Part shown: positions 45,863 through 63,900 of the stretch, piece by piece | Layout of the letters: every line of letters begins with the position of its first letter | Numbering within the stretch: position 1 is the stretch's first letter | Source: Escherichia coli | GTDB taxonomy: Bacteria > Pseudomonadota > Gammaproteobacteria > Enterobacterales > Enterobacteriaceae | Assembly (NCBI RefSeq): GCF_050920415.1 | Contig: NZ_CP169309.1 | Length of the DNA stretch: 64,000 nucleotides | Strand: one strand, 5' to 3' | Made by a program: the position numbers and the translations under genes | Notes under the pieces: model-generated | The model's database searches: none | Told to the model about the DNA's origin: nothing | Seen by the model: only the letters and a program-made list of their open reading frames with translations

Positions 45863-47854
45863 TTACTCAAGCAAGGTTAATAATTGTTCGCAAAGCAAAA
45901 CGCAGTTATTCATTGCTTCTCCCCGTGCCTCGCCTTCTGTATTACGAAATTGTCCCAACACATGTGCCAGCCGATAAAAACCCATCGCGGTGAGTTCATT
46001 GACCAGCAACTCTGACTGACTAATGGCACTCTGTTCCTGATAGCGCCAGCCATTATGGAGCAGTTGAATAAGCAACGCCTGACAGCGCATCAGTAACTGA
46101 TGAGTGGTAGACGGTACAGGCAGAACGCTGGCAGAAGGTAGCGGTGCCACAGGCGCAGTTTCTGCGTCCAGTGCCCAGGCGCGGGTTTTTGTCATCATCA
46201 CCCGTGGTTCCAGTGTCAATTGCCCCTCAGCAAAATTGATAAACCCAGAAACCAGACTAACGGGATCTTCTGTTTGTTGTAACAGAGCTGCCATGCGTTC
46301 AACAGCAAAGGGCGCACTGGCTGAAGCTGGCAGTGATAACGTCAGCACATTATCTTCACCTTCGCCACTGATTACCTGCGCATCCAGTGTCTGCCGACTG
46401 CTGTCCCAACCGAGTGAAATGCACTCTTCTACTGGCAGAATAAATAAGTTATCGACCTGGTTAAGCGGTCGTATGGCGGCTGGCGGACGTTGGCGTAAAT
46501 ATTCCCGCAAAGCCACAATGCCCGGCTGGCGCAGTGGTGCGCTCAACATTTGCCAGGCATCAGGCGACAGCGGAACAACACTGCTTAAGCGGTTGCGGGT
46601 AGCTAACAGCAACTCGCCATCGGCACTGCGTTTTGCTGCTTGTGAAACAATTTGCCCACCCGCCAGCGCGCCAGCCTGAAAACTAAACAGCCGCCGTTTT
46701 GCCGCTGGAGAGTTATCCTGTTCACTTCTCGGCCAACTGCGCGAAAGATGCAAAATACTGCCGGTGTCGGGATCGGTGAACCAGATGCGTAAACCATACC
46801 GCTCATTATCCTGCCAGCAACGCATACCTAGTGACACCAGCCGCAAATGATCAAGCTTTGCTTCGCCAGCAATGCCTGCGCCAACGACCGTGCGCCACGG
46901 TATGGGCGGTACTTCACCGACACTGTCACGTCGCGCTATCTCTTGTGCACTGTTCAAGCGACTGGTTAACGCCGCAAGCTGGCACAAGCATTTTCCGGCA
47001 TGATAGTGGCTGGCGCGGGCGTGGAAGGCATCAACGCTTGCCCGTAGCTGTCGTAGTGATTCACTTACCCAACGCCAGTTGCAGCGTTCCGCCGCTTGCT
47101 GCGCGCGGCTGAAAGCGGCCTCGTAGTGGATTGACGGTTGGCTGATCCCGCCCAGCCATAATGCCTGACTTAATTGCTGAACATATTGACGACATGCTTT
47201 ACCTTCGTCGCTGGAAAACGGATCGTCAGATGATGTGACGTGTTCACTGTGCATCTGCCAGATCAAATGAGTAAATTCCGCTTGTTGATTTTTGGCCTCG
47301 ACGAAGGCCTGCACAGCCAGTGCTACGTGTTCACACAGCGTTCCTTCAATACAATCACAACGGGCGAAACGAATGCTGCTGCGGGAATAAAAACGCACAT
47401 CGCTCATCGGTAAGCGGGCAGAGGGAATTTCGCCCGGTGTGCAGAACAACTCAATGGTGATGCCTTTAGCGACCAGCGCCTGCGCGCGTTTACGCGTGGT
47501 ATTGGGCAGGGTAGCCAGTTCTTCCTGCCAGATTGCCGGATCCCACTCTTCTTCTTTTTCCGTAGGCTGGGCGGTGGCACAAAGTCGTTGATAACTTAAC
47601 ACCAGCATCACGCGATGACGGCACATGCCGCTGGCCCCGCAGCTACATTGAGCCTCTTTCAGTGCCTGACTGTTCGCCAGCCGGGTACGGACACCGTCAC
47701 TGAAGGTGGCGATTAAAGCGCCGTTCTCATGGCAGATTTCCGGGACATTGCCATTTTCCAGTTCCTTAAGGCTGCGCTTCACAAAACCAGCATTGCTTAA
47801 CGCCGTCAGGGCCTGCGGTGTCAGTTCTAATAATTCCGGACGTAGTGAATTCAT
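45863..47854 (-). CDS. yehQ: SWIM zinc-finger domain protein, ~663 aa
   Basis: SWIM CxC...CxH signature ('CSCGASGMCRHRVMLVL'); start chosen at MNSLRPELLEL, giving a 4-nt ATGA overlap with the yehP stop. Confidence 0.75.
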   Translation of the reverse strand: MNSLRPELLELTPQALTALSNAGFVKRSLKELENGNVPEICHENGALIATFSDGVRTRLANSQALKEAQCSCGASGMCRHRVMLVLSYQRLCATAQPTEKEEEWDPAIWQEELATLPNTTRKRAQALVAKGITIELFCTPGEIPSARLPMSDVRFYSRSSIRFARCDCIEGTLCEHVALAVQAFVEAKNQQAEFTHLIWQMHSEHVTSSDDPFSSDEGKACRQYVQQLSQALWLGGISQPSIHYEAAFSRAQQAAERCNWRWVSESLRQLRASVDAFHARASHYHAGKCLCQLAALTSRLNSAQEIARRDSVGEVPPIPWRTVVGAGIAGEAKLDHLRLVSLGMRCWQDNERYGLRIWFTDPDTGSILHLSRSWPRSEQDNSPAAKRRLFSFQAGALAGGQIVSQAAKRSADGELLLATRNRLSSVVPLSPDAWQMLSAPLRQPGIVALREYLRQRPPAAIRPLNQVDNLFILPVEECISLGWDSSRQTLDAQVISGEGEDNVLTLSLPASASAPFAVERMAALLQQTEDPVSLVSGFINFAEGQLTLEPRVMMTKTRAWALDAETAPVAPLPSASVLPVPSTTHQLLMRCQALLIQLLHNGWRYQEQSAISQSELLVNELTAMGFYRLAHVLGQFRNTEGEARGEAMNNCVLLCEQLLTLLE

Positions 47855-48987
47855 GACTGAAGATTCTCCGCAAGCCAGGTAGCCAGTTCGCCTGGCGTCA
47901 TCGCGGCTATTTGTGCGCCGACATTTACCAGCGCCTGGGCTGTATCGCGGTCGTAGCAAGGTGTTGCGGTGCTATCGAGCGCTGCCAGTCCCAGCACTTT
48001 GATGCCGCTCTGGACACACTTTTTCACCTGATGCGTCAGCAAAGATGATGAACCCCCTTCATAAAAATCGCTCACGAGTATGATGACGCTTTTCGCTGGT
48101 TGTTCAATAAGTTGCCGACCATATTCCACGGCACTGGCGATATTGGTCCCGCCGCCCAATTGTACTTTCATTAATAACTCTACCGGATCGGCAACGTCGG
48201 CAGTGAGATCGACGACGTTAGTGTCAAAAGCGACCAGATGGGTACGAATGCCGGGTAACTGCCATAAACAGGCCGCCATCACCGCTGAGTGGATCACCGA
48301 GTCAACCATCGATCCGCTTTGATCAACCAGTAACACCAGCTGCCATTGTTCGCTATGGCGCTTAATGCGACTGTTAAAGCGGGGGGATTCGATATACAAC
48401 TTGCCGTGTTGCGGGTGCCAGTGTTGCAGGTTGGCGCGCAGAGTACTTTTGAAATCGAAATTACGCGCCAGTGGAATAAATGAGCGGCGACGGCGATCGC
48501 GGACACCAGAAAAAGCCTGACGAACTTCCTTTGCCAGTCGCGCCATAATTTCTTCAACAACCTGGCGCACTATCCGGCGGGCGGCAGCCAGCACTTCGGG
48601 ATTCATCAGATGTTTGGTGTGCAAAACGGCGCGTAACAGGCTTTCAGAGGGCTGCATACGTTCCAGCACGTCGAGATTTGTCACTACATCTTCAATGCCA
48701 TAGCGCAGTACAGCATCGCTTTCCAGCCGCTCAATCACCTGTTGCGGAAACAGCGTGTGAATACTGTTGATCCAATCAGGGGTGGTGAGATTTGAGCCAC
48801 CTAATCCACCGGAGCGTTCACCACGCTGGAGCCGTTCAGGATCGCGCCCGTACAGCCACTCCAGCGCGTGGTCCATCCGCCGGGCGTTGTCATCCAGCCC
48901 ACAAAGCGTCGTTTCTGCCGCTTCGCCAAGAATTAATCGCCAGCGTTGTAGCTCACGAGTGGTCAGAAGATCGTTCAGTTCAGACAT
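47851..48987 (-). CDS. yehP: von Willebrand factor A (VWA) domain protein, 378 aa
   Basis: MIDAS motif 'LLVDQSGSM'; start at MSELNDL overlaps the 3' end of yehM by 8 nt. Confidence 0.85.
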   Translation of the reverse strand: MSELNDLLTTRELQRWRLILGEAAETTLCGLDDNARRMDHALEWLYGRDPERLQRGERSGGLGGSNLTTPDWINSIHTLFPQQVIERLESDAVLRYGIEDVVTNLDVLERMQPSESLLRAVLHTKHLMNPEVLAAARRIVRQVVEEIMARLAKEVRQAFSGVRDRRRRSFIPLARNFDFKSTLRANLQHWHPQHGKLYIESPRFNSRIKRHSEQWQLVLLVDQSGSMVDSVIHSAVMAACLWQLPGIRTHLVAFDTNVVDLTADVADPVELLMKVQLGGGTNIASAVEYGRQLIEQPAKSVIILVSDFYEGGSSSLLTHQVKKCVQSGIKVLGLAALDSTATPCYDRDTAQALVNVGAQIAAMTPGELATWLAENLQS

Positions 48988-51259
48988 GGAAAACTCCCCA
49001 GTGTTGCAGTGATGCCAGTGCCTGCTGTTCGAGCTGTTGATGATGTGCAATGGCTTGCGGTGGGCAATGCAACGGCATTTGCAGCGCCGAAACGGGAAGC
49101 TGAGCGAGCTGGTAATGCTCAAGCACCTGATGCGCCAGCGTCCCGCGTTCTCGTGGCGGTAGCCAGGCCATCGCCGCGCGCAAATCGGGCAGGGCGTTAA
49201 TAAAATCGGCGTCACTCAGTTGATTCAAATGGCTGCTGAAACCGGCGATAAATGCAGGCTGACTGGCCAGTTGATGGCGGGCTAATGCCAGCAAACCGTG
49301 CAGCGCCTCGCCAGATTGTGCCGGGGATAATTGTGCCAGCATCGTCAGCGCCGCTTCGGCACTGGCGTTGGGATGTTCCAGACGCATCAGCGCGCCAAGG
49401 GCCGCACCGCGATCCAGCGCTGGGGCATGAATCGCCTGACTGCGACGTTCCAGTAAGGCTACCGCCGCAGAAAGCGAAACGCCGGGTAAATTAACGCCGC
49501 TATTTAGATCGCGCAGGATATGGCAAAGCGCCTGCCAGCTATGCAGGTGAGCGTGAAACTCCTTCTCATCCGGCCTGCCGTTGGATTCACATAGCCACAG
49601 TGTGCGATCGATAGCCGCGTATAACGTCGTCTGTAATATCTGCGCGCCTTGCATACCGCTGATTTCATCGAGCTGCCACAAGGCGTAAAGCACTTCCAGC
49701 GCCTGGCCCATTTCGGCAAACTGATTTTCCTGGGCGATTAATAATGTGAGTTGTTCCAGTAATTGCTGACTGAAGGACGCCAGACCCGCTAACGCTGCCT
49801 GGCTAAGACATGTGGTGATGCCGCTGATTCCACCCGCGTCCAGCATATCGGCTTCTAATTTATTGCGTGCGGCCTCCTGGAGGGTGGCACCAAAGCAGGC
49901 GGCTTCAATCAATGCCGCATGTTGGCTAAGTGGCTGGGTTAATGTCCAGCGTTCTTCACCGTTGCCCGCCAGCGTCAGTGTACTTCCGTGCTGGCGCACA
50001 ATGCCGGGAATCTCCAGTATTGCCAACCGATGTAGCACCTGACTTTGCGCCAGTCCATCGGGGGGAAAGCGATTTAAGGTAAGCTCCGCCGGAAGAGAGA
50101 TTCCGGTACGTTCCAGTTCGCAGGTGACATCTTTTGGCAGAGGTGGCTGTGGCGTCGAGGGGGCAAGTTTACCGAATCCGTCACCTGCTAATGTGTCTAT
50201 CAACGTTACCAGTATCGGATCGGTATCGGGATGAATAACGCCGCGATAGCTCCACGGCAACGGCGCGTTCAGGGCTTCTTTGATCAGCGAGCCTGCTATA
50301 GCATCCAGCCAGTCAGTGCGTAACGGTAGTGTATGACCGCGCAACTGTGCCAGTGCCATCGCATGCAGATGAGCGGCAGCCATATCCGCTGTTGAAGCAG
50401 GCAAGTGGTGCTGGCGCAAACGGGTAAGAACCGTTTTTAGTAGTTGTTCACCTGCCTGCTGCAAGCCCCACCGCCAGCACCAGTTTTGCCAGACCGGGGC
50501 AGGCATTCCTGAAAGGTATCCTGCCAGCACATCAAGGCGCTTTTCACTGTATGGCGTGAGATAGCAACCTGTAACGGCATCTGCCAGCGAAGGCAATTCT
50601 GGCTTGTTCATTTCTTGCAAACATTCGCGCCACATTTTTGCCAGTGCCGGAGCGTGCCAGCCACCACAGACGACTAACACGCCGCCATTGTTTTGCTGCA
50701 TCGCCCATGCAATCCAGTGGGCCATAAAGGCTTCGCGCTGACGATTGAGCGCATCGCCGGGGTAGTCGCCCCGCAGTTGGGCAAAATAGTGCGCCAGTGC
50801 ATAGGGTAATATAGTTTGCTGGCTTTCATCTTCGAACAGGTGATCCCACAGGGTGTCGCTGTTATCCATACGAGTGGCACGCAGCAACAAAGCCTGGCTT
50901 TCCTCTTGCGTACCGGGTGACTCGTCCTCTTCTTCACTCTGCGCCCAGCAAGGCAAATCAATAAAGTAAGTTTGTGCCTGAATATGACGTGCGGTTTGTA
51001 GCGCCTGCCACTCCGGCGAAAATTCAGCAAATGGCGTCCAGGCGCCACGTCCGGGGGCAGCACCGTCCTGATACTGGCAATAACTGTAAATCGCCACCGG
51101 AAGCTGGTGGGCTAAAAACAGTTCGTCTATCCGGTCATTAAAATCCGCCGGGCCTTCAATCAACACGTATCGCGGCCGCTGGTTTTCGATTAACGATTTC
51201 ACCAGTCGGGCGCAGGCCGGGCTATGATGCCGGATGCCGACAATTAACGGCTCGCTCAT
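48980..51259 (-). CDS. yehM: Large uncharacterised protein of the YehM family, ~759 aa
   Basis: No recognisable catalytic motif; start chosen at MSEPLIVGIRHHSPA, immediately after yehL stop with embedded GAGGAAAG Shine-Dalgarno. Confidence 0.75.
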   Translation of the reverse strand: MSEPLIVGIRHHSPACARLVKSLIENQRPRYVLIEGPADFNDRIDELFLAHQLPVAIYSYCQYQDGAAPGRGAWTPFAEFSPEWQALQTARHIQAQTYFIDLPCWAQSEEEDESPGTQEESQALLLRATRMDNSDTLWDHLFEDESQQTILPYALAHYFAQLRGDYPGDALNRQREAFMAHWIAWAMQQNNGGVLVVCGGWHAPALAKMWRECLQEMNKPELPSLADAVTGCYLTPYSEKRLDVLAGYLSGMPAPVWQNWCWRWGLQQAGEQLLKTVLTRLRQHHLPASTADMAAAHLHAMALAQLRGHTLPLRTDWLDAIAGSLIKEALNAPLPWSYRGVIHPDTDPILVTLIDTLAGDGFGKLAPSTPQPPLPKDVTCELERTGISLPAELTLNRFPPDGLAQSQVLHRLAILEIPGIVRQHGSTLTLAGNGEERWTLTQPLSQHAALIEAACFGATLQEAARNKLEADMLDAGGISGITTCLSQAALAGLASFSQQLLEQLTLLIAQENQFAEMGQALEVLYALWQLDEISGMQGAQILQTTLYAAIDRTLWLCESNGRPDEKEFHAHLHSWQALCHILRDLNSGVNLPGVSLSAAVALLERRSQAIHAPALDRGAALGALMRLEHPNASAEAALTMLAQLSPAQSGEALHGLLALARHQLASQPAFIAGFSSHLNQLSDADFINALPDLRAAMAWLPPRERGTLAHQVLEHYQLAQLPVSALQMPLHCPPQAIAHHQQLEQQALASLQHWGVFHV

Positions 51260-51269
51260 GCATCTTTCC

Positions 51270-52358
51270 TCACGGCAGGCGGTGGCGAGCTTGATAATAA
51301 GCCTGCCAGTGAGCTTCTTTATGTGTAGCGACACGTTGTTCGAAGTAACGGCGCAGACGTGCGCGATCTTCTTCGTTATCTTTGACGATGGTTCCGGCAA
51401 TACAGTCCACCAGGTCGGCTGGCTCCCCCGCGCGATTCGCTAAAAACCAGGCGCGGACGCCCACAGCGTGGGCCACGTTCACGGCTTCAGCGGTGGACAT
51501 AATCGCTGTCAGTGTATCCATTGACGTTTTCTTTTCGCCGTTGGCACGCAGATCGCGGAAGGTGCGTACCAGTAACTCAAGTACCGCGTCAGGCACTTTA
51601 TGCGGAATACCGCTATGGGCCAACAAACGCGCCGAAGCACTGGCGACCAGTTCCAGCTCCTGAGCAAAATCCATAATCGGAAAGACAGTTTCAAAGTCGA
51701 ATCGGCGTTTTAGTGCCGCGCTCATTTCATTAACGCCGCGATCGCGGGTATTGGCGGTGGCAATAATATTAAAGCCTTCCCGCGCATAGAGCTGACTGGC
51801 TTCACCAGTGAGTTCCGGCACCGTCATAACCCTGTCAGAAAGCATACCTAACAGACAGTCTTGTACTTCCAGTGGTGTACGCGTTATCTCTTCAAAACGG
51901 ACAATTTTGCCGTCGCGCATTCCTTGGTAGAGCGGGGCAGGGACCAGCGCTTCCGTTGACGGACCATGATTAATAAGCAGGGCGTAGTTCCAGCCGTACT
52001 TGATTTGATCTTCGGTGGTAGATGCGCCGCCCTGGATAGTTAACCCAGCATCGCCGCTAATAGCGGTTGCCAGTAATTCAGACAGGAGAGATTTTGCGGT
52101 GCCAGGTTCCCCCACCAACATCAAACCGCGCCCGGTAGCAAGAGTGACTAACATGCGTTCGACAGCGGAGGGACTAATCACGACTTTACGGCTGATATTT
52201 TGCGCGCTATCGCCAAGAATAAAAGAACGGGCCGCAGGCAAACTTAACTGCCAACCGGGCGGGCAAGGTGCGTTATCATTTTGCTTTAATTTTGCCAGTT
52301 CATCGGCGTATAACACAGCGGCAGGCGGACGCTGCAGATGATTATTCTGCGGTGACAT
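51270..52358 (-). CDS. yehL: MoxR-type AAA+ ATPase, 362 aa
   Basis: Walker A 'GEPGTAKS', AAA_5-like architecture. Confidence 0.85.
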   Translation of the reverse strand: MSPQNNHLQRPPAAVLYADELAKLKQNDNAPCPPGWQLSLPAARSFILGDSAQNISRKVVISPSAVERMLVTLATGRGLMLVGEPGTAKSLLSELLATAISGDAGLTIQGGASTTEDQIKYGWNYALLINHGPSTEALVPAPLYQGMRDGKIVRFEEITRTPLEVQDCLLGMLSDRVMTVPELTGEASQLYAREGFNIIATANTRDRGVNEMSAALKRRFDFETVFPIMDFAQELELVASASARLLAHSGIPHKVPDAVLELLVRTFRDLRANGEKKTSMDTLTAIMSTAEAVNVAHAVGVRAWFLANRAGEPADLVDCIAGTIVKDNEEDRARLRRYFEQRVATHKEAHWQAYYQARHRLP

Positions 52359-52467: not shown

Positions 52468-52551
52468 TAAAAAAACCTGCTGGTGAGGCAGGTTCTTTTA
52501 TTTACTACTTTCAGGCCTAACACCACGGCCTGTGCAACATCGTGTTCCAAC
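52468..52551 (-). ncRNA. Candidate cis-encoded/divergent antitoxin sRNA (OrzO-like) with sigma70-like promoter and intrinsic terminator
   Basis: Minus-strand -35 TTGCAA (52586-52581), 17-bp spacer, -10 TATAAT (52563-52558); minus-strand terminator stem aacctgc/gcaggtt (52474-52494) followed by a T-run on that strand. The 5' part of the predicted RNA is complementary to a 20-nt segment (52698-52717) in the leader of the downstream toxin ORF (19/20 match to plus-strand 52532-52551). Ends are estimates. Confidence 0.4.
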
Positions 52552-52789
52552 GAACGAATTATAACCATCGGTGGACCCCGTTGCAATTAAGATAATGAGA
52601 TTTATAATCCTGACTGTTGGGACGTTGCGCCGGATCGAACCCATTTCAAGTCCTGGCTACCGGACGGGTGGTGCCGCAGGTAGTGCCCTGATCCGGAGTG
52701 CAACATCGTGGTCCAACATACGTAAACCAGTATCGACAGGCAGTGTAAGGGTAAGATGCTGGTGTTGCGCTCCTTAATAAGGAGAGCGG

Positions 52790-52879
52790 ATGGACACGCT
52801 GACACAAAAGTTAACCGTGCTCATTGCCGTACTGGAGTTATTAGTGGCTCTGTTACGGCTGATTGATTTGTTGAAGTAA
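52790..52879 (+). CDS. zorO: Type I toxin-like small hydrophobic peptide, 29 aa (MDTLTQKLTVLIAVLELLVALLRLIDLLK), ZorO-like
   Basis: Not in ORF track; hand-translated. GGAGAG Shine-Dalgarno 4 nt upstream; single amphipathic/hydrophobic helix ending in Lys, like TisB/ZorO class toxins; long structured 5' leader with plus-strand -10 TATAAT at 52613-52618. Gene symbol assigned from memory of the O157:H7 zor-orz locus, not from a search. Confidence 0.55.
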   Translation: MDTLTQKLTVLIAVLELLVALLRLIDLLK

Positions 52880-52932: not shown

Positions 52933-53136
52933 CTATACTCGTCATAATTCAAGTTGCATGTGCTGCGACTGCGTGTTATTCGGCCCATCCATGGACCTCA
53001 CCCCTTACGGGGCCGCTGCAAGTAGCGTTCAAATCCGCTCCATGCGGATTTGTCGTTCACCCCAGTCACTTACTTTAGTAAGCTCCTGGGGATTCACTCG
53101 CTTATCGCCTTCCTGCAACTTGAATTATTTAGAGTA
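52933..53136. repeat. ERIC (enterobacterial repetitive intergenic consensus) element, long variant
   Basis: Contains reverse complement of the ERIC core 'gtgaatccccaggagcttactaaagtaagtgactgggg' flanked by the terminal inverted repeats 'aagttgcatgtgctgcg ... ttcctgcaacttgaattatttagagt'. Confidence 0.65.
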
Positions 53137-53138
53137 TA

Positions 53139-53456
53139 TTATTCTATTTCTTGGTTGAATATATTCTGTAGTTCACGATTAAAAATAGCGATTACAGTTT
53201 CAGGTGATTCACCTCGTAATTTTCGCTCATCAATAAATTCATCTCTTATATAAATCAACGCATCATTTATTAGCGGGTCGGCATCATCTCTATCACGTTG
53301 ATGAAATGTTGGACGTAGCCGGAATCGTTCCTGTCGATAGACGGAACCTGTAAATAATTCAGAGCATTTATGGATCTCAAGTCTGAAGGAAAACGGATCT
53401 TCAGGTACAGGGACTTCATAATCATAAGTAGCGACCAGCTCTTTTTGCACGATCAT
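53139..53456 (-). CDS. yehK: Small uncharacterised protein, 105 aa
   Basis: ORF of expected size in conserved position between yehL locus and yehI. Confidence 0.65.
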   Translation of the reverse strand: MIVQKELVATYDYEVPVPEDPFSFRLEIHKCSELFTGSVYRQERFRLRPTFHQRDRDDADPLINDALIYIRDEFIDERKLRGESPETVIAIFNRELQNIFNQEIE

Positions 53457-53516: not shown

Positions 53517-56500
53517 TTAATGGAAAATGACGTCAGGTGCGCTTAACGCTTCACTCAAATCAAACGTATCGAGTTCGGCAAAAGTGACAGATTTATTGTC
53601 ACGGTACACTCGAAGAGAACGGAAGCTCATTAGCGCTTTGCTATCAGCACTGTAGTGGTTAAAACCGGGTGAAAACTTAAGGACCAGCCGATACTCGCCC
53701 AGGTCATAGACACATGCGTCCTCAAAACCTGACTCCCAGCCTTTGTATCGCATTCCCATAAGTTGCCCAACGGTTGCGGATTTACCTTCCCAGCGAGTCA
53801 GGCTGTTACTGGCTGACTCGTCAGGTGTGAGCAGCACTGTGCGCCGCATCAACTGGCGAAAAGGCTGCATAATTTCGTAATCGGCAAAAACCTGTGCAAA
53901 TTCACTGCGCATTTCTGCTGTCATTTCTAACGGGTGGGCAATGCCAATCAGAGCATCCGCAGGCAGGTCAATTGGCTCATCTTGTGCGTTGCAGAACTCC
54001 CCCTCAGCGGCCACACGAAAGGCGTTGAGTAAACGACGCGGTTCATTTGCCGGATAAACCGCCCATATTAATCGCTGAGTAACCAGGCGAGTAAAGGGAT
54101 GATTAACAAACAGAGAATGAAAATCTGCCAGCGACCAGCGTCGGGTGGTGCGTAGGGCAGTTTCAAGACGCGGGAGCAGGTTTTTGCTCACCTGAGTGGC
54201 ATCTTTTTTTAGCCCTTTTAGTCGGGCCAGTGCCTCGGGCGCTTTCAGTTGATCGTCATCGGCGCGCAACCGGGGAACACTTTTCTGGCGAACGTTTTGC
54301 TGATCAAAGATAACCGGGTTGAGGTTTTCATCGAAGCGAACGGTAAACTGCCGGGGACCAAAATCAAATATCAACGCCTGCGGATCATCCAGGCCCAGTG
54401 TTGGGACTAATCTGTCCGCTAACTCTTCCTGGCTTAGTCCACGATTTTCTGCGACCACCTGAAGAAATTCCGCCGCGTTATCACGTAAGGGACGGGATTT
54501 CGCCCGTTGCGATATATGATGCAGCTGTATCAGTGCCATATCATTATTCATCTGAGTAAGTATATTCAGACCACTGACAGCACGGGCAGATTTGCCCTCT
54601 TGAGGCCAGGCAAGGATCTGTGTCGTCAGATTCCGAGCCGTGCTTTCGTCACCAAAGAGACTTAACGCCAAAAAAGCCCAGTTGTCTTTTGCGGGGGCGC
54701 CAGCCTGTTGCCAGGCGGTGAAGAGATCCCAGGCAAAAGCGGCCAGCGTTTGTGGCTGGCAGAACGTTTTCAGTTGTTCCAGCCCGCAATAAAAACGTCC
54801 GCCCTGGGTAAAGCGCAGCATTTCGCCAATAATTTCCAGAGCGTCATCAGTAACAGGTTGATTATTCGTGATAAGTCTCGGCCTGGACCACATTGCCGGA
54901 TGCCAGAAATCAGGGGCTTTGGGAATGCGTGCCGGGTAAATCTCTATTGGACTCTGTTTAAGTAATTGCTCCAGGGCAGGCCATACATCTGTACGCTGCC
55001 AACGATTGGCTACAGTTTGTAGCAATTCGCCATGTCCTTGTTCATACAGTAAACGCAGAGCATTGAGTGCCGCTTCGCTGTTATCGCCAGACCTGGCAAA
55101 GATTAATGGGATCAGCGCCGTAGCCGTATGCTCCGGCCATTGTAAAATCCACTGGCGAGCCAGATTACGCTGGCCCGCAAAACGATGCCAGACGCGGGCA
55201 ACGGGCAGCGCCAGTTCTGTTGCGCCAAAATGAATCAGCAGCGGAAATATCTCTTTGGGATGTCGGGCAAAGGCGGTGATTAATCCGGGCAAAGCATCGG
55301 TACCCAGCACACTTAACAGATATTCCACCCCGGTGTAATGAAAATCAGCCGCGACAATTTGTTGCCAGCACGATACTGCCATTTCGCGCGGCATTTGCGC
55401 GATAAGGTACAGATTCCACACTCCCCAACGCTTTTCATCAGTGTAATTAAATTTGCGTTGGAAAGTTCGCCACCCCTCCATCAACGCAACGCTATCTTGT
55501 GCCAGTAATGCGCTGGCGGCCTCTTCCCGGTAGTGTTTATTTTCAGTCTGTTTTGCCTGATAATTGAGCAATCTTCCTAATGAAGTATGTGTCTCTAGTT
55601 GATCGGTATCCAGAGCATCCAACTGTCCTGTGAGAATAAACTCATTAAACTTCCACCTGTGATCTTCAAAACCTAATTCCCGCAAGAAGGTATCGGTTCC
55701 TCTGCTAGCGAGACGTTCGTCAAAAGGCATGGCGCTAAAATGGCTGATTGTAGTTTGTTGTTCCTGCGTCCAGTGTTCCTGGGACGACCTGTACGCTTGC
55801 GGTACAAGCGTAAGTTCAGGTAGCGAAAAGTGAGTTATGGAAGTCTTTTTTCTGCCACGCCACGGTGGCGAAACGAGGATTTCAGGCAGACTGCTGTTAT
55901 CGGTGCTATCAATAACCGGTTTTGGCGAAGCCGATAAATAACTATTCACCACTGCCCGGGCTTGAGTACTTAACCACGGCATCACCTCTTCTGCCAGTTG
56001 TGGCTGCGATGCCATCAGCGTTTGTAACAGCGTATGCCAGTATTCATCACGTGCTTTTTGCTGTGCAGGCAGCTTTTTGTCTTCGATGATAGGATAACCA
56101 GGGCGCGCAGGGGGTTCTTTTAACGCCAGTAGTTCTGCCAGTGCGGCGAGCGTCGCATGGGGAAAGTTTTTACTGTATTTAGCCACACGTTGCAGGCTGG
56201 GTTTGTTTTTATCGGCAACTAACAGCAAGATGCGAATAACTTGCGGATGGTTAATTTGTACCAGCAGGCTACCGCAATCTTCTTTATGGGCATACATCGC
56301 GAGGCGTGGAACGGCTGCAATTCCCTGTTCGCGCAAAAGGGCGGCGCAGGCCGCGTAGCCGAAGTGGTTTTCATGCGACATGTAGCTGGCTTCGCGATCG
56401 CTAAATATATCCTGGCTCCAGTAGCGTTCGAGTTTTCTCACCGCTCTGGGGTCATTAGCAACAACTTTTAACCACTCCTTAGAATGAAAATGAGTCCGCG

Positions 56501-57167
56501 GGCATTCAAGGCCTACCAACTCATTGGCGATTTCTGGTTTCTCCGGGAGGATGAGTGCAATAAAAGGACGGCGAACTTTGGGTATTCCTGGCAGTGCGGC
56601 AATGAGTTTGTCGGCGCAACGCTGCCAGCAGCTTTCCTCTGCCAGAGAGAGATGCTTACGCAGTCGGAGATCGAATTCGTTATAGGTTTCTGAGCGATAA
56701 CCATAGCCATAACCATCGTCCTCGTTCTGATACTGCAATGTTACTACCAGAGGATCACTCTCATAACACCGTACAATAAACTGGCGTGCAATCACCACTT
56801 CAGTCGCATATTCCAGTCCCTCTTGTTGGACGATTTCATCGAGCAACTGTTGGCTATCATTTTGCGCGATACAGGCTAGCGCCGCCATTGTCCGGGCCGG
56901 AATTGAGGGGTTGTGCTCGCCTATCAAGTTGATGGCTTGCGTAATGGCCGACTGCCACTCCAGTGAAAAATTTTCATAACGCCAGACGATGTTTTTTTTC
57001 TTCTCAGCAATGTGTAGCAATTTATCACCCAGTGTCTGGATGAGGCTTTCAGTGATAACAGGCACCGGTTCGCCCGGCCAATTGCGATGGCTGAGTGGTG
57101 TTTTGCCTTTTTTATATTTCAGTTCCAGTTGGGCGTTATCCGCTAGCCACGGTAATTCCTTGTCCAT
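53517..57167 (-). CDS. yehI: Giant DUF4132-domain protein, 1216 aa
   Basis: Length (~1210 aa class), shared internal blocks with the upstream paralogs (e.g. 'LRLRKHLSLAEES.WQ.CA.KLIAA.P', 'ILPEKPEIA.E'; 'FTAWQQAGAPAKDNWAFLALSLFGDESTARNLT'). Confidence 0.8.
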   Translation of the reverse strand: MDKELPWLADNAQLELKYKKGKTPLSHRNWPGEPVPVITESLIQTLGDKLLHIAEKKKNIVWRYENFSLEWQSAITQAINLIGEHNPSIPARTMAALACIAQNDSQQLLDEIVQQEGLEYATEVVIARQFIVRCYESDPLVVTLQYQNEDDGYGYGYRSETYNEFDLRLRKHLSLAEESCWQRCADKLIAALPGIPKVRRPFIALILPEKPEIANELVGLECPRTHFHSKEWLKVVANDPRAVRKLERYWSQDIFSDREASYMSHENHFGYAACAALLREQGIAAVPRLAMYAHKEDCGSLLVQINHPQVIRILLLVADKNKPSLQRVAKYSKNFPHATLAALAELLALKEPPARPGYPIIEDKKLPAQQKARDEYWHTLLQTLMASQPQLAEEVMPWLSTQARAVVNSYLSASPKPVIDSTDNSSLPEILVSPPWRGRKKTSITHFSLPELTLVPQAYRSSQEHWTQEQQTTISHFSAMPFDERLASRGTDTFLRELGFEDHRWKFNEFILTGQLDALDTDQLETHTSLGRLLNYQAKQTENKHYREEAASALLAQDSVALMEGWRTFQRKFNYTDEKRWGVWNLYLIAQMPREMAVSCWQQIVAADFHYTGVEYLLSVLGTDALPGLITAFARHPKEIFPLLIHFGATELALPVARVWHRFAGQRNLARQWILQWPEHTATALIPLIFARSGDNSEAALNALRLLYEQGHGELLQTVANRWQRTDVWPALEQLLKQSPIEIYPARIPKAPDFWHPAMWSRPRLITNNQPVTDDALEIIGEMLRFTQGGRFYCGLEQLKTFCQPQTLAAFAWDLFTAWQQAGAPAKDNWAFLALSLFGDESTARNLTTQILAWPQEGKSARAVSGLNILTQMNNDMALIQLHHISQRAKSRPLRDNAAEFLQVVAENRGLSQEELADRLVPTLGLDDPQALIFDFGPRQFTVRFDENLNPVIFDQQNVRQKSVPRLRADDDQLKAPEALARLKGLKKDATQVSKNLLPRLETALRTTRRWSLADFHSLFVNHPFTRLVTQRLIWAVYPANEPRRLLNAFRVAAEGEFCNAQDEPIDLPADALIGIAHPLEMTAEMRSEFAQVFADYEIMQPFRQLMRRTVLLTPDESASNSLTRWEGKSATVGQLMGMRYKGWESGFEDACVYDLGEYRLVLKFSPGFNHYSADSKALMSFRSLRVYRDNKSVTFAELDTFDLSEALSAPDVIFH

Positions 57168-57176
57168 GCTCTTTCC

Positions 57177-60100
57177 TTATTCAAACAGGGCTTCAATATC
57201 GTTAATCAACTCGCTGGCGGTGATGTCATCGAGTGCGGAGAACTGCGCTTCCTGTGTTGAATGACTCCCCCAGCCATAGCTTTCTGCTTTGCCTTCCCAT
57301 AGCCACAGCTTGCTTAAGAGTTGCTCGGCACTGAGTTCGGCTGGCGACATACCAACTGCAAATCCTTCATCGATTTCCATGATTAATGACCAGCGGCCCA
57401 GAGGTTTGATCATCCAGCCGATCCAGCCACCGTCCTGCGGTTCACCACGCATCCAGCCTTTATTCGCCAGCCCCATTACCCGACCGCTCGGGCATTTTCT
57501 GCCTGCCCAGCGGGTCAATTCGCTGGCATTGCGCTCGGTTTCTGTCAGGGCATAACTGTTGCGGTCGAGCTGGCGGAACGGCGGTAACAGCTCGTAGTCG
57601 GCAAAAAGCTGACCAAAGGCGGCGGCATCCGTCGGTGATATTTCCAGAACGTGAGGAATACCAATAGAGATATCGCCTTCCGGCAGGGTGAAAAGATCAT
57701 CGTCAGCGGTGCTGTAGCTGTTATCTTCCGCCACACGGAAGCACGCCAGTAACTGGTTGTCTGCGCTATAAATGCCCCAAATCAGACGGCGGGTTAAGTG
57801 GCAGACCAGCGGATGCTCAACCAGAAAGAGCTGAAAGTTTTCCGGCGACCAGCGGCGGCGCAGGCACATGGCGGATTCCAGCCTTGCCACCTGCTGGGCG
57901 GCAACGGTACGCGCATCTTTTTTCAGCAGTTTGTAGCGGTTAACTGCATCGTTCGCTTGGGTTTCATCATCGCTTTTGTTCGGTTTAGGCAAGTCTTTCA
58001 GGCGGCTGCCGGAAACATCGCGCACAAACGGTTTTAAGGTTTCATCAAAGCTGACGGTGAACTGCCGTGGGCCAAAATCCAGCAGCAGCGAACCGTTATC
58101 ATCCAGACCGAGATCCGGTGCTAACCGGTCTTCAAGCTCCGCCACCGTGAGTTCGCGGCTCTCGGCAATGTCGGCAATTTTTTCTTTTGCCCGCTCCTGT
58201 AATGCTTTGAATTTCAGTTTCTGGGCGATGCCGTTAAGCTGCATCAGGGCGATATCACTACCGATAGCAGCGAGGATATCCAGCCCGACGGTGGCGCGTT
58301 TATGCTGGGATTCACCAGGCCAGGCGCGGATTAATGGCGTCAGTTTGCGGGCGGTGTCATCGTTGCCAAGAACACCTAATGCAGTGAACGCCCAGCTCTC
58401 TTTCGACGGCGCGCCAGCGGTCTCCCAGGCGGTAAACAGATCCCAGGCAAACTCAGCCAGTGAGTCGGCAGTACAGGCGTCTTTCACCTGTAATAACCCC
58501 GGATACAGCGTATCTTCCTGAGGGAAGCGAAGCATTTCACCGAGGTGGAAGAGGGCGCTATCTGGCAGTGATTGGGCGTTTGCTTTTAATACCGGGCGCG
58601 TCCAGAGCGATGGCTGATAAAAGGCCGGAAGAGTGGGGATTTTTGTCGGGTGATTATCTAAGGGATCGAGCGCTAGCAGAGCGTTCACCGCGTCTGTTAC
58701 TTCCGGCTGGTTATAACGCCGGGCGATTTCTTGCAATAATGGCTGATGACCGTTTTCTGTAAGCATACGCAAGGCAGCGCGGGCGTTGTCCTGCGCTTCA
58801 CCGGCTTTGCCGAGCGCCGCGGGCAGCAGGCCGGTAATGGCGTGTTCCGGGTATTTCAGCAGCCAGCTACGGGCGTCTTGTCGTAGGGTTTTGAGTTTGT
58901 TGAAGGCGCGGGCGACGGCAGGAGCCAGCTCACTCGCTGCGAAGTAATTCGTTATGGGCAAGGCTTCCTGTGGATAGCGTGCAAGTGAGTTTACTAACCC
59001 AGGTAATCCTTTGAGTCCAAAATGTAACATGGCGTATTCGGTATCGGTATGCGGAGATACAGTAAGGGCATTCCATGCTCTTATTGCTTTCTCCAGCGGC
59101 AATGTTGTCAAAATCCCCAAATGCCAATAATGCCCGGTAGGTGAATGAAACACCTTAAATTCACTTATTAAGGTTGCATAATCTTCATTTAGCCATGCCT
59201 CAACTACCGCTTCGGGAGCTTTAATATATGTACCAGCGATCCGTCGTTGAAAACCCATCCTTGCCAACAGATTGGCAGTACTTTCTTCATGACTAACCGT
59301 GATGTGTTTTGAATACCAGATATATTTCGCCAAAAGTTGATTACTGATTTCTTCTGTCAGATAACTGATTGGCTCAATGCCTAATGGTGCTAAATCAAGC
59401 ACCGGAATCGACGATTTTTTCTTTTTCGAAAGCCATGGTGGGGAGACTACTATGGCCGGCAGTAGATCGGTGCTGGCATGGTTTGAGGGCTGTGTCAGTT
59501 GTTGCTGGCATGATTTCAGCACTGCAGCTGCGGGTGTCGAAAGCCAGGGAATGACCTGTTCTGCCAGTGCTGGTTGCGAGATAAGCATCGTCATTAGCAT
59601 AATGCGCCAACTATTCTCTTCTTTTTGCACTAGAAGTTCCGCCAGTGCTGCCAGTGCTGCGTGTGGGAACGCAGCGCAGGCTTTCGTCATTCGATCGTGA
59701 CAGCGTTTAGTATGCCCGGCTACACGTATAAGCAGTGTTAATGCGAACGGATGATTGATATGACGCAACACATCGGCGCAGTAGTCACTTGCGGCATAGG
59801 GAGCAAATCGGGGCAGGGCTGCAACACCTTGCTCCTGTAATACGGTGGCTGACCATATCGCACCACAATAGTAATCATCAAAAATGGCATATGGCTCGTG
59901 ATATTTTTCTAATGAGGCAAGAATGTGCTCATCAGTCGCCACTATTTTTAGCCACTCAAGCGAGGGTAATTTTTTTTTCCCCAGTAGACGCTGGGCAATT
60001 TCATGTGCAATTTCTGGTTTTTCGGGTAATAACATAGCAATTAATGGTTGCCGCCATTCTGGAATATGTGGAATTGCGGCAATAAGTTTTTGTGCACATT

Positions 60101-60971
60101 TTTGCCAGAGAGACTCTTCCGCCAGTGATAAATGTTTCCGTAGGCGTAATTCAAAACTGGAATATTGCTGCAAGTTATCAGGTGCAATGCCAGACGGCAG
60201 AATAATAATGATATTATTCGCATAATTCCATTCAATATCAATCTGTTGAAGGTGTATTATTACATCAGTAGCATATTCCAGACCGCCTTCCTGAATGATC
60301 TGATCCATAACATCCTCACGCACTTTATATCTTGTGCATTTCATTTCAAGTGCCGTGAGTACAGCCATTACTGGTGATGGTAACTGTGTTGTTTTCAGGC
60401 AGTCGATCTGACTGATCGCCTGGGCGACGGTGTTTTGCCATACTAAAGAACAGGCGCTGAAGTCAAATGTGGCTGTTTTATTATCCCGTTGCGACACGCT
60501 ACAGGCTAAGCGACGTAACTGGGTCAAGTTGTCTGCTTGCTGAACAGGAACTCCGGGAAAGCGGCGATGGCTTAACGTGGTGTGTACAACTTCGGGCGGA
60601 AAAACGACAGCAATATCTTTCGCCAGCCACGGTAAAACATCATCTGTATTTTTGTCAGCCACACGGGCTTCTGCTACGCAAAAGGGTTGTTCCTGAATAA
60701 TGGTGGATAAGGCCGCTACCTTGAGAGAATCCGTTACCGTTTGGGAAGGTTGCAAAGAATTATCCTTCGCTTGCTCCACATACCCCTTCTTCACCTTCTC
60801 CGCAATCAGCCTCAGTTCCGCTTTTTCCGCCGCCGCAGCATCAGCAAAGCTTTTTACCTGGCTTTGCCCGTTGGTACTGACTTTGCCCCAACTAATATGC
60901 AGCTCGTTTCCCTGTTGCTCCACTGCCCAGAATTTATGTGATTTTTCGTCCTGATAAATATAGGTTTTCAT
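57177..60971 (-). CDS. molR: Giant WGR-domain + DUF4132 protein (MolR-like), 1264 aa, apparently intact
   Basis: N-terminal WGR-like block 'MKTYIYQDEKSHKFWAVEQQGNELHISWGKV'; DUF4132 body; C-terminus '...LDDITASELINDIEALFE' shared with the next paralog. Assignment to molR versus a strain-specific paralog is by length (1264 aa) only. Confidence 0.7.
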   Translation of the reverse strand: MKTYIYQDEKSHKFWAVEQQGNELHISWGKVSTNGQSQVKSFADAAAAEKAELRLIAEKVKKGYVEQAKDNSLQPSQTVTDSLKVAALSTIIQEQPFCVAEARVADKNTDDVLPWLAKDIAVVFPPEVVHTTLSHRRFPGVPVQQADNLTQLRRLACSVSQRDNKTATFDFSACSLVWQNTVAQAISQIDCLKTTQLPSPVMAVLTALEMKCTRYKVREDVMDQIIQEGGLEYATDVIIHLQQIDIEWNYANNIIIILPSGIAPDNLQQYSSFELRLRKHLSLAEESLWQKCAQKLIAAIPHIPEWRQPLIAMLLPEKPEIAHEIAQRLLGKKKLPSLEWLKIVATDEHILASLEKYHEPYAIFDDYYCGAIWSATVLQEQGVAALPRFAPYAASDYCADVLRHINHPFALTLLIRVAGHTKRCHDRMTKACAAFPHAALAALAELLVQKEENSWRIMLMTMLISQPALAEQVIPWLSTPAAAVLKSCQQQLTQPSNHASTDLLPAIVVSPPWLSKKKKSSIPVLDLAPLGIEPISYLTEEISNQLLAKYIWYSKHITVSHEESTANLLARMGFQRRIAGTYIKAPEAVVEAWLNEDYATLISEFKVFHSPTGHYWHLGILTTLPLEKAIRAWNALTVSPHTDTEYAMLHFGLKGLPGLVNSLARYPQEALPITNYFAASELAPAVARAFNKLKTLRQDARSWLLKYPEHAITGLLPAALGKAGEAQDNARAALRMLTENGHQPLLQEIARRYNQPEVTDAVNALLALDPLDNHPTKIPTLPAFYQPSLWTRPVLKANAQSLPDSALFHLGEMLRFPQEDTLYPGLLQVKDACTADSLAEFAWDLFTAWETAGAPSKESWAFTALGVLGNDDTARKLTPLIRAWPGESQHKRATVGLDILAAIGSDIALMQLNGIAQKLKFKALQERAKEKIADIAESRELTVAELEDRLAPDLGLDDNGSLLLDFGPRQFTVSFDETLKPFVRDVSGSRLKDLPKPNKSDDETQANDAVNRYKLLKKDARTVAAQQVARLESAMCLRRRWSPENFQLFLVEHPLVCHLTRRLIWGIYSADNQLLACFRVAEDNSYSTADDDLFTLPEGDISIGIPHVLEISPTDAAAFGQLFADYELLPPFRQLDRNSYALTETERNASELTRWAGRKCPSGRVMGLANKGWMRGEPQDGGWIGWMIKPLGRWSLIMEIDEGFAVGMSPAELSAEQLLSKLWLWEGKAESYGWGSHSTQEAQFSALDDITASELINDIEALFE

Positions 60972-60983
60972 TGCTAAATCCTT

Positions 60984-63900
60984 TTAATCAAACAATGATT
61001 CAATGTCGTTAATCAGCTCGCTGGCGGTGATGTCGTCGAGCATGGAAAAAGTAAGTAAAGGTTGTTTACCGTAGCGATCATCTGGCGAGGTGATTTTTAC
61101 GCTTTCAACAGGTAACAGGTCGCCATAACCTGTTTCACCATAAATTAATGAAAAATGTTCTGTTTCAAGTTCGAGATCGCCATAAGGGGTAGATTTGCGC
61201 ATCGCATAGACGCTGCCGCTTTCTTCCAGACGTTGCCAGCCTCGGCGCTCTAGCCCGACAATACGTCCGGCCTGACAGAGCTGTCCTTGCCAGCGTGTCA
61301 GGTCGTGGGTATTCCGTTCATTATCAGCAAGACGATAACTACCACGATCGAGCTGTTGGAAGGGGGGAAGCAGTTCGTAATCAGCGTAAATTTGCCTGAA
61401 TGCAGCGGCAGATTCAGGGGGGATCTCCAGCACATGCGGTATACCGATGTTTCCTGCTGGCAGCGTGAATAACTCATCCTGCGCATCGCTGTAAGTGCTG
61501 TCTTCTGCGACCCGGAAGCAGGCAATCAGCGTGTTTTCCTCAGTATATACTCCCCATAACAGCCGTCGGGTTAAGTGACGTACCAGCGGATGCTCCACCA
61601 GAAACAGGCGGAACTGTTCTGCCGTCCAGCGTCTGCGCTGGCACATAGCCTGCTCCAGACGATCAATCTGCTGACTGGCAATGGCGCGCACATCTTTCTT
61701 CAATTGTTTGAAGAGGTTAACGGCGTCAGTTGCCAGTGTTTTATCATCGCTCTGATTTGGTTTGGGTAAATCTTTCAGGACTTTGCCGTTTGCATCGCGC
61801 ACTACAGGTTTTAAGGTTTCGTCAAAAACAACGGTGAATTGACGTGGGCCGAAATCCAGTATCAGCGAGCCACTGCTATCAAGCCCTAAATCTGGAGCCA
61901 GGCGGTCTTCCAGTTCAGCCATAGTCAGCCCACGGTTTTCAGCAACTATGTTGATTTTCTCGCGGGCATGTTCCTGTAATGCAACGAATTTAATCTTTTT
62001 CGCAATGCCATTAAGCAGCATTAGCGCAACATCGCTGCCAATATCAGCTAATACATCCAACCCGGACACCGCCCGTTTATGCTGTGATTCCCCAGGCCAG
62101 GCACGGATAAGCGGGGTTAATTTACGCGCGGTGTCGTCATTGCCTAAAATCCCCAGCGAAGTAAATGCCCAGTTTTCTTTTGCGGGTGCGCCAGCTTCTG
62201 TCCAGGCGGTATACAGATCCCAGCCAAAGTCAGCCAGTGATTCGCGAGTGAAGGTTTCTTTGATGATCTCCAGCCCAGCGTAGGCGGTAATGTCGCGAGG
62301 AAAGCTCAGCATAGTGCCCAGGTGGCGCATAGCGTCATCTGGTAGAGGCAGGTTGTTACTTTTAAGCCGTGGTCTGCGCCATAAGGTGAACTGATAAAAG
62401 CCGGGCAGTGGGGCGATTTTTGCGGGATATTCTTCCAGAGGATCGCTATCAAATAATGTTGCCAGCGCAGCTAAAACATCAGGTTGATTATATCCTTGCG
62501 CGATTTTCTCAATCGTTTCTCGCTGGTTTAATTTCACTAGCAGTCGGAGCGCCTGGCGGGCATATTCCCGATTTTGGCACGGTTTGCCCAGCGCCAAAGG
62601 CAGTAGCCCGGCGGCGGCATGGCGCGGGTTATTTGCCAGCCAATTAACGGCATCCTTGTAAGCCATTTTTTTCTGTAACCGCTGCGCCATTGGTAAGGCT
62701 AGTTCACTGGCCCCAATAAAGAGGGTGAATATCCACAGTCGTTGATGATCTCGTTGCAAGCAGGTCATAAACGCAGGAATGGCCGTACTACCAAAAACTG
62801 CCAGAATCTCTTTCTCACCTGAATATCGCTCCTCAATGATTATTTGGTTGAGAAATGAAATCGCCTGTTGTCCCGGTAAGTAACAAAGCGCAGATAAATT
62901 CCAGCTTTTGTTGGCATTGTTGTGATATTTCGCAAACTCAGCTTTTAGTGCTGGAAAATCAAAGCGCAACAAGGCATCAACAGCGCTTTGCGGTATGTGT
63001 TTTTTTTCATGTAAGTCATCTTCGCAATGCAGCCATTCATTAAAACCTAATTGCCAAAGGATTTGTTGTTCTGGTGTAAAAGGAATGAAAGATGTCTCCC
63101 AGCTTTCTTTTTCAATTAGTGGTAGGTCGGTAAATAAGGTTTGCTGTGATGCCTGATATTTCGCGATTTCACTGAATCTGGATATGTCAGTGTGACTGAT
63201 TAACTCTGTAATTCCAGGTGTGATGTCAGTGACGGAAGGGATGGGAAGTACCGGTAAATCAAATACGGGTATTACATTCTTTTTCTTATTTATTGCCCAC
63301 GGTGGAGCGACAAGCAGCTCTGGCAACATATCCGCAGTGGCATACTCATATTCTTCAGCTACTGACTGAGGACGACATTCAGATAAGATGCCTGCCGCTT
63401 TAGCATTAACCCAGGGAATGACGTCGCGTACTAATTCTGGCGTGACGGTAATCAGTTTGACAAGCGCTTTACGCCACTCTTTGTCTTCATGTATTGCCAG
63501 CAAAGTAGCATAAGCGGCAATAGCCGCAGCGGGATGTTTTTGGCAGGCTTTGCTTAAGTATTCCAGGTGCTTTTTCTTGCCATTTACACCGAGGATCAGA
63601 ATTTGAATCGCATCCGGGTGATTCGTTTTCCATAGCCATTTGACAAGATCTTCAGTCTCGCTGATGCGCTCGAAGAGATAAGTGGGATTGTCAGAATGCT
63701 CTTCCACAAACTCAGTAAGTATCCGGCTTACACCGCGCCCCCCATTATTTGCCAGCAACATTGCCAGATAAGCGCGAAAATCACGATACAACGGTGGGAA
63801 GTCGTATTTTTCTGCTGTAGTCAGAGCTATATCATCGGTTACTACCAGTCTTAACCAGGTTATCGCCGGAACGTTTTGGTCTGCATAATGTAGCGCCATA

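Follow-up and report, generated by a model that had tools for sequence, protein, structure and literature searches.

What do the Escherichia coli genes yehL, yehM, yehP and yehQ do, and are four genes the right unit in which to ask? These questions are raised by a 64,000-nucleotide stretch of E. coli DNA (contig NZ_CP169309.1; hereafter the window), in which yehLMPQ lie packed together on the minus strand. No bacterium has been studied more closely than E. coli, yet these four genes, really seven, have long lacked an assigned function there, and YehL gives its name to one of seven MoxR subfamilies. We found that the real unit has five components, yehLMPQ and a WGR-DUF4132 gene of the MolR type, and that it is conserved from enterobacteria to actinomycetes. 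The system looks like an ATP-driven switch that is linked to damaged DNA or to the DNA of invaders and controls a putative, hitherto unrecognized hydrolase. Tentatively, and at somewhat less than an even chance, we favor a model in which a MoxR-VWA machine of five components is built around yehLMPQ, with WGR-DUF4132 proteins as its sensors. On this view it would be a horizontally acquired conflict or stress system that is gated by a threshold.

The cassette is already annotated gene by gene and is uncharacterised as a system. An earlier, sequence-only reading of the window had held that the combination has no established function, and our searches agree. A search of the literature on the gene names returned no functional study of the yeh genes, no described function was found for the YehL subfamily of MoxR ATPases, of which YehL is the founding member (PMC3893208), no mention of DUF5682, the family to which YehM belongs, was found in the literature search, and none of the mentions of DUF4132 was functional.

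The same reading had described four minus-strand genes with overlapping or abutting starts and stops, and each junction detail matches the sequence. The TGA of yehL (51272-51270) lies within TGAGGAAAG, with the ATG of yehM 10 nt further on, yehM shares 8 nt (ATGTCTGA) with yehP, and yehP in turn shares ATGA with yehQ. In annotated homologous operons of other phyla the junctions are again tight or overlapping, and this recurrence indicates a conserved property rather than chance.

The extent of the unit became apparent from its relatives. When one genome per species was scanned with a YehM alignment, YehM relatives were present in at least 581 species, and our neighborhood survey covered the 80 best loci together with a handful of distant ones. 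Six-frame open reading frames (ORFs) of the 80 loci, scored with custom hidden Markov models (HMMs), contained YehL in 79 cases, YehP in 78 and YehQ in 77; most of the missing cases are contig ends, and two loci have ample flank and nonetheless lack YehP and YehQ (L036) or YehQ (L056). YehP is always two genes downstream of YehL in the 78 loci that have it. Of the 73 loci whose upstream flank is 4 kb or longer, 71 have a WGR-DUF4132 (MolR) gene, nearly always immediately 5' of yehL and on the same strand. The proposed link to the giant WGR-DUF4132 genes is thus overwhelmingly confirmed, and the proposed four-gene unit is real but incomplete, with WGR-DUF4132 as its fifth component.

The co-occurrence of SWIM, MoxR, VWA and DUF4132/WGR genes also extends well beyond Enterobacteriaceae. 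The cassette occurs in Enterobacterales, Burkholderiales, Xanthomonadales, Myxococcota, other Deltaproteobacteria and many actinomycete genera, and Pfam-annotated contigs of Luteimonas, Chitinivorax, Serratia and Streptomyces carry the same five genes; Proteus has a divergent version. MolR abuts YehL directly in Klebsiella. The DUF4132 gene lies between the DUF5682 and VWA genes in Agrobacterium vitis and after yehQ in Burkholderia, placements that make it part of the operon. Flanking genes, by comparison, vary between genomes. All-against-all clustering of 3550 flanking ORFs yielded no sixth gene family common to different classes, and the clusters that formed reflect generic ABC and LysR families and within-order synteny only.

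Two loci suggest that the triad of AAA, DUF5682 and VWA proteins is the invariant core: one distant gut contig has the YehL-YehM-YehP trio only, and in another system a HEAT_2 protein replaces DUF4132. The latter comes from a contig of GCA_022841245.1 (L091), where two tandem MoxR-DUF5682-VWA systems occupy positions 3227-23468. In the first of them DUF5682 and VWA are truly fused and DUF4132 is present as two genes, and the second has the HEAT_2 protein and a 501-aa protein where DUF4132 would be expected. A gene resembling ATP-dependent DNA ligases lies close by.

The earlier domain calls of MoxR AAA+, VWA/MIDAS and SWIM are correct by Pfam and by conserved motifs. YehL is a MoxR AAA+ protein with predicted ATPase activity (Pfam AAA_5, 2.6e-34; a weak bpMoxR match, 0.0021) that is genomically coupled to a VWA/MIDAS protein. 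In 81 homologues drawn from several phyla, its GEPGTAKS (Walker A), RFEEITR (Walker B-like) and ATANTRD (sensor) motifs and R218/R219 show conservation of 95% or more. YehP, with its VWA domain at its end, matches Pfam VWA_CoxE over the full length of the model (2.2e-71; positions 1-222 of 222), and conservation of its MIDAS residues D222-x-S224-x-S226, T281 and D307 is 95% or higher across 78 homologues. In NCBIfam, the window proteins gave nothing beyond generic AAA and VWA matches, among them GvpN/CbbQ-type models for YehL and a weak cobaltochelatase-subunit match for YehP. At the protein level YehL and YehP are 98.9% and 98.1% identical to K-12, and the synonymous and nonsynonymous codon differences (51/4 for YehL, 47/7 for YehP) indicate purifying selection on the core.

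Natural fusions of YehM to YehP occur in divergent lineages (P0170, P0224, P0260 and P0267), and one of them was confirmed in its genomic context. These fusions argue for direct contact between YehM and YehP and, together with the gene order that is kept across phyla, they back the earlier suggestion of a physical complex.

YehM had been described as a 759-aa protein of no recognisable fold, and this description does not hold. It belongs to Pfam DUF5682 (1.3e-97). An N-terminal Tiki/TraB/ChaN-like alpha/beta domain (approximately residues 1-250) is followed by a central domain, and the protein ends in a HEAT/ARM-like solenoid. The N-terminal domain resembles the structures of ChaN, TraB, HopBA1, EreA-like proteins, PMT and RRSP, and residues G-x-R10-H11, E35 and G199-x-x-H202 are invariant, also in homologues of 25-28% identity. 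Thus the domain shares both the alpha/beta fold and the GxxH…E…GxxH-type residues of the Tiki/TraB/PrgY/GumN/ChaN/EreA/RRSP/HopBA1 superfamily, with the equivalence of the motifs judged by inspection and from the hhalign register. Unlike other members of that superfamily, it sits in a large HEAT-solenoid protein that is tied to a MoxR-VWA motor. In our model the domain would be a hydrolase, most likely a metal-dependent peptidase or esterase. YehM is 95.3% identical to its K-12 counterpart.

YehQ (92% protein identity to K-12) has two weak Pfam SWIM matches (0.0036 and 0.24). The CxCxnCxH signature of the first (C70, C72, C78 and H80) is invariant in 30 homologues, and the second has the consensus CDCxxGxxCEH. 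The protein folds as helical bundles and OB-like beta-barrels, and a sequence search of the PDB found no relatives. YehQ therefore keeps the signature of SWIM zinc fingers, but without a transposase or SNF2 context.

The WGR-DUF4132 proteins diverge fast. MolR-like paralogue 2 of the window has a WGR domain (Pfam, 1.8e-15, residues 7-69), which matches PDB 2ra8, and a DUF4132 domain (8.2e-51, residues 988-1173). WGR is the DNA-break-binding domain of the PARPs; the same domain stands at the N-terminus of two of the MolR paralogues, but without a PARP catalytic domain. MolR is often multiplied. Massilia, Glycomyces, Lentzea, Klebsiella and E. coli have it as two or three tandem genes, and identity between paralogues in the same genome is 35-48%. 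When 87 copies are compared, conservation is highest in the C-terminal approximately 350 residues (mean column identity to the reference 0.5-0.67, with many invariant charged residues), and the middle of the protein is highly variable (0.08-0.3). No PDB relative of the C-terminal module was found by sequence profile.

Diversification is also visible within E. coli. YehI of this strain is 84% identical in amino acids to K-12 YehI; a hypervariable allelic block at residues ~400-660 (window 55188-55967) has 26-64% protein identity to K-12, and the rest of yehI is 90-100% identical. Of 5426 complete E. coli genomes, just 48 match this yehI allele over at least 80% of the query. We considered and rejected gene conversion as the source of the block, since the tandem paralogues are only about 25% identical there.

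These observations can be combined into a mechanism. Observed are the genes with their order and coupling, the fusions, the conserved motifs, the folds and the regulatory box; the architecture of the complex, the direction of signaling, the activity of YehM and the biological role are what we infer. The WGR-DUF4132 paralogues would be interchangeable sensor or specificity subunits, present as one to several tandem, fast-diverging copies. Their WGR domain and variable helical middle may recognize a signal linked to nucleic acid, such as DNA ends, damage or a DNA-protein structure of an invader, and the conserved C-terminal DUF4132 module would dock onto the core. YehQ, with its two SWIM fingers and OB-like barrels, may contribute by binding nucleic acid or a partner. 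With the MIDAS of YehP as the coupling element, the YehL AAA+ ring would spend ATP to remodel the complex, and this remodeling would switch on or load the Tiki/TraB-like domain of YehM, which is presumably held on the HEAT scaffold and is the only other enzyme-like module of the predicted machine. In E. coli the system would be silenced by H-NS, with its sensor genes under LexA. The higher GC content of the cassette than of its flanks also counts for this model. A cassette found in at least 581 species would thus hold a putative Tiki/TraB-type hydrolase, with sensor-like WGR-DUF4132 genes that diversify and that are SOS-controlled in Escherichia and Klebsiella.

The closest described class is that of the MoxR-vWA ternary conflict systems, in which MoxR-vWA pairs have been proposed as threshold switches (PMC7159879). 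Those systems likewise have a MoxR AAA+/vWA pair, traced there to CoxD-CoxE ancestry, together with a distinct conserved third protein; they too are abundant in actinomycetes and myxobacteria, and they too have diversifying components. The differences are that the third component here is DUF5682 and not VMAP, iSTAND, FtsH or a beta-propeller, that YehP lacks C-terminal effector domains and its fusions, to YehM, are at the N-terminal side, and that there are two more fixed partners, the SWIM/OB protein YehQ and WGR-DUF4132. The terms WGR, SWIM, Yeh and MolR are absent from the text of PMC7159879. A conflict or stress role fits best given the MoxR-vWA core, the patchy distribution, the unrelated flanks, the expansion of paralogues, the hypervariable block, the silencing by H-NS and the frequent decay. 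Should the system prove to be an immune device or one for DNA damage, it would be a new architecture among MoxR-VWA switches and would give the Tiki superfamily a further role.

Several results weigh against this model. The earlier suggestion of a stress- or defence-related neighborhood stands as regards the link to WGR-DUF4132 and gains nothing from the rest of the context. PADLOC assigned none of its families to the seven proteins, and six annotated neighborhoods consist of ordinary metabolic, transport and regulator genes, with no defence islands. Phages are nearly without the system (one dubious record among 50,697 in INPHARED), viral contigs gave one prophage overshoot among 2.9 million in IMG/VR, and plasmids carry it rarely (38 of 72,556 records, mostly megaplasmids). 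In E. coli the yehLMPQ locus is near-core and at a fixed site, present in 5424 of 5426 complete genomes and in 5200 with at least 80% coverage, which sets it apart from accessory defence systems of the usual kind. The components include no recognized classical toxic effector (nuclease, TIR or pore former), and no experimental phenotype is on record for the yehLMPQ system. Outside Escherichia and Klebsiella, no LexA (CTG-N10-CAG) or Cheo (GAAC-N4-GTTC) box was found 5' of more than 40 other cassettes. The assignment of YehM to the Tiki/TraB group rests on fold and motifs: Foldseek of YehM against the PDB gave nothing significant, a PDB sequence search with the YehM profile found no relatives, and the sequence-profile similarity to the superfamily is not significant. 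In the hhalign comparison, the N-terminal domain did not match YbaP, the E. coli member of the TraB family, significantly (E 0.11); YbaP was compared alone and with 14 homologues, which are too alike for a deep profile. On the side of the assignment, one of the 27 members of the YehM alignment matched TraB_PrgY_gumN (0.017) and one matched Cofac_haem_bdg (ChaN; 0.088), both weakly.

A phage origin was considered separately. Six small PHROG families (phrog_30700, 33984, 29006, 31592, 36295 and 20839) are near-identical to E. coli YehM, YehQ, YehP, YehK and MolR. These matches are no evidence for such an origin; they are most likely host genes in over-extended prophage predictions, and the INPHARED and IMG/VR scans agree with host genes having been swept in. 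The sole IMG/VR match (L093, 95% identity) has the same host-gene character.

Regulation bears most directly on the first of the alternatives, that the five genes encode a dedicated machine for DNA-damage repair or processing with a housekeeping SOS function, which we consider unlikely. Here WGR and SWIM/OB would target broken or blocked DNA, the MoxR-VWA pair would extract a stuck protein and YehM would degrade it, so that the machine would do what Cdc48/p97 does with SPRTN/Wss1 when eukaryotes repair DNA-protein crosslinks. In keeping with this idea, a LexA-like box (CTGGATATAAATACAG) lies at -25 of the first molR start in this strain, K-12 has an equivalent LexA-type box (AACTGGATAAAATTACAG; L085 4448-4465), and in Klebsiella (L005) a LexA-type box occupies the same position, approximately 25 nt ahead of the first MolR gene. 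Published work lists molR as an SOS-box gene (PMC6590174), and in Deinococcus depletion of DdrO derepresses WGR and DUF4132 proteins, which places both in the DdrO regulon. The LexA box, the SOS listing and the Deinococcus result count equally for the model that we favor. A repair function would also suit the break-binding character of WGR, the OB-like folds of YehQ, the ATP-dependent DNA ligase gene adjoining one cassette and the near-core status of the locus in E. coli. However, the LexA box was found for the first molR gene alone. The sole strict CTGT-N8-ACAG match in the 32-kb locus falls inside the coding sequence of yehQ, which leaves the stretch upstream of yehL without one, and H-NS binds upstream of yehL, with yehL and yehM derepressed in hns/stpA mutants. 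Because the boxes are missing upstream in other taxa, SOS control appears to be lineage-specific. Tandem paralogue expansion and a hypervariable block would be unusual for repair factors. The phyletic distribution is patchy. Finally, the K-12 copy has decayed without a known repair defect: its molR is a pseudogene, split into yehF and yehH (L085 4475-8270), and its yehQ (L085 17101-18945) reaches 614 aa instead of 663, with the last 49 residues missing. This decay, together with silencing by H-NS, is a possible reason why no K-12 phenotypes have been reported.

The second alternative, which we regard as distinctly unlikely, is a chaperone that inserts a cofactor or metal center or matures a client, with WGR-DUF4132 as a large substrate-holding subunit or as the client itself. 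Its models are CoxD-CoxE(-CoxF), NorQ-NorD, CbbQ-CbbO, RavA-ViaA and the chelatases BchI-BchD-BchH and CobS-CobT-CobN. In its favor, CoxD-CoxE, RavA-ViaA, NorQ-NorD and CbbQ-CbbO likewise encode an AAA_5/MoxR ATPase beside a MIDAS-bearing VWA adaptor; YehP is a full-length member of VWA_CoxE, and the GvpN/CbbQ-type and cobaltochelatase-subunit matches noted above point in the same direction. The layout of AAA+, VWA and a partner of ~1250 residues mirrors that of the chelatases, the N-terminal domain of YehM resembles the haem-binding ChaN, and the historical name of MolR is 'molybdate metabolism regulator'. Whereas the Cox-type pairs mature an adjacent client enzyme, no client or cofactor-biosynthesis gene is co-conserved with this cassette, and no tetrapyrrole genes lie nearby. 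MolR and YehM have no sequence similarity to CobN or BchH. Unlike the partners of CoxD-CoxE-type pairs, the yeh partners carry nucleic-acid-type domains, and a chaperone role would leave the WGR, SWIM and OB domains and the diverging sensor-like paralogues unexplained. YehM, moreover, retains Tiki-type residues that look catalytic.

A more specific possibility, to which we give a slim chance, is a bacterial machine that clears proteins from DNA, in which the sensors and the SWIM/OB protein would find DNA-trapped proteins, the MoxR-VWA pair would extract them and YehM would proteolyse them. The targets would be proteins that are stuck on DNA or bound to it covalently, or the terminal or replication proteins of an invader. 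If true, this machine would be a prokaryotic counterpart of Cdc48/p97-SPRTN/Wss1 that is SOS-induced in enterobacteria. Least probable of all is that the cassette, once acquired horizontally, now has no function in E. coli and persists there as a silenced relic in slow decay. For this reading, the silencing by H-NS, the GC-rich composition (53-57% in the cassette vs 44-50% in the flanks), the K-12 molR pseudogene and shortened yehQ, the deletion in Shigella sonnei lineages, the transposon insertion in the DUF4132 region of ST131 and the sizeable clusters of shortened YehM proteins (some of which may be contig-end fragments) can be cited. Against it stand retention of the locus in nearly every complete genome, strong purifying selection on YehL and YehP, and catalytic, MIDAS and SWIM motifs that are all intact in this strain.

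The features of the region are collected in Table 1. The window matches E. coli NZ_CP169399.1 with 100% identity, the yeh locus has approximately 94% DNA identity to most E. coli, and positions 30761-60988, from pbpG/dld to the DUF4132 genes, have 93-97% DNA identity to K-12. This low identity over the region implies that the strain holds a divergent haplotype across at least 30 kb, beyond yehLMPQ itself.

Table 1. Genes and other features of the yeh region, in window positions except where L001 (the locus of this strain) is named.
Feature	Position	Strand	Product	Description	Basis
yehL	51270-52358	minus	362 aa	MoxR-family AAA+ ATPase (predicted activity)	
yehM	48980-51259	minus	759 aa	DUF5682 protein	
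yehP	47851-48987	minus	378 aa	CoxE-type VWA, intact MIDAS	
yehQ	45863-47854	minus	663 aa	Double SWIM zinc-finger protein	
zorO-orzO	52469-52879				
orzO RNA	52469-52544	minus			
zorO ORF	52790-52879	plus			
yehK	53139-53456	minus	105 aa		
yehI	53517-57167	minus		DUF4132 paralogue 3, without WGR	Annotation
WGR-DUF4132 paralogue 2	57177-60971	minus		MolR-like	Pfam
WGR-DUF4132 paralogue 1	60984-64000, clipped by window end	minus		MolR-like	ORF list, annotation
Start of paralogue 1	L001 31282			Just past window end	
LexA box	L001 31283-31320				

The sequence-only reading had also attached weight to a neighboring toxin-antitoxin locus. The locus is real: a complete type I toxin-antitoxin system, zorO-orzO, is inserted between yehK and yehL, with an OrzO-P RNA (Rfam RF02083, 98.9 bits), a ZorO-like ORF of 29 aa (MDTLTQKLTVLIAVLELLVALLRLIDLLK) and divergent promoter-like sites between them at 52558-52608. 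Its adjacency, by contrast, carries no functional weight, because zorO-orzO and yehK were found in Escherichia loci only, where both separate MolR from yehL, and K-12 lacks zorO-orzO, with a yehK-yehL gap of 306 nt. A functional tie to zorO-orzO was therefore rejected; the insertion was not seen outside E. coli. With the YehK HMM, the E. coli locus alone matched among 84 loci, and yehK is probably not part of the system. In the spacer between yehK and zorO, at ~53040-53110 on the minus strand, lies a candidate ERIC/IRU repeat (…GTGAATCCCCAGGAGCTTAC…GTAAGTGACTGGGGTGAA…).

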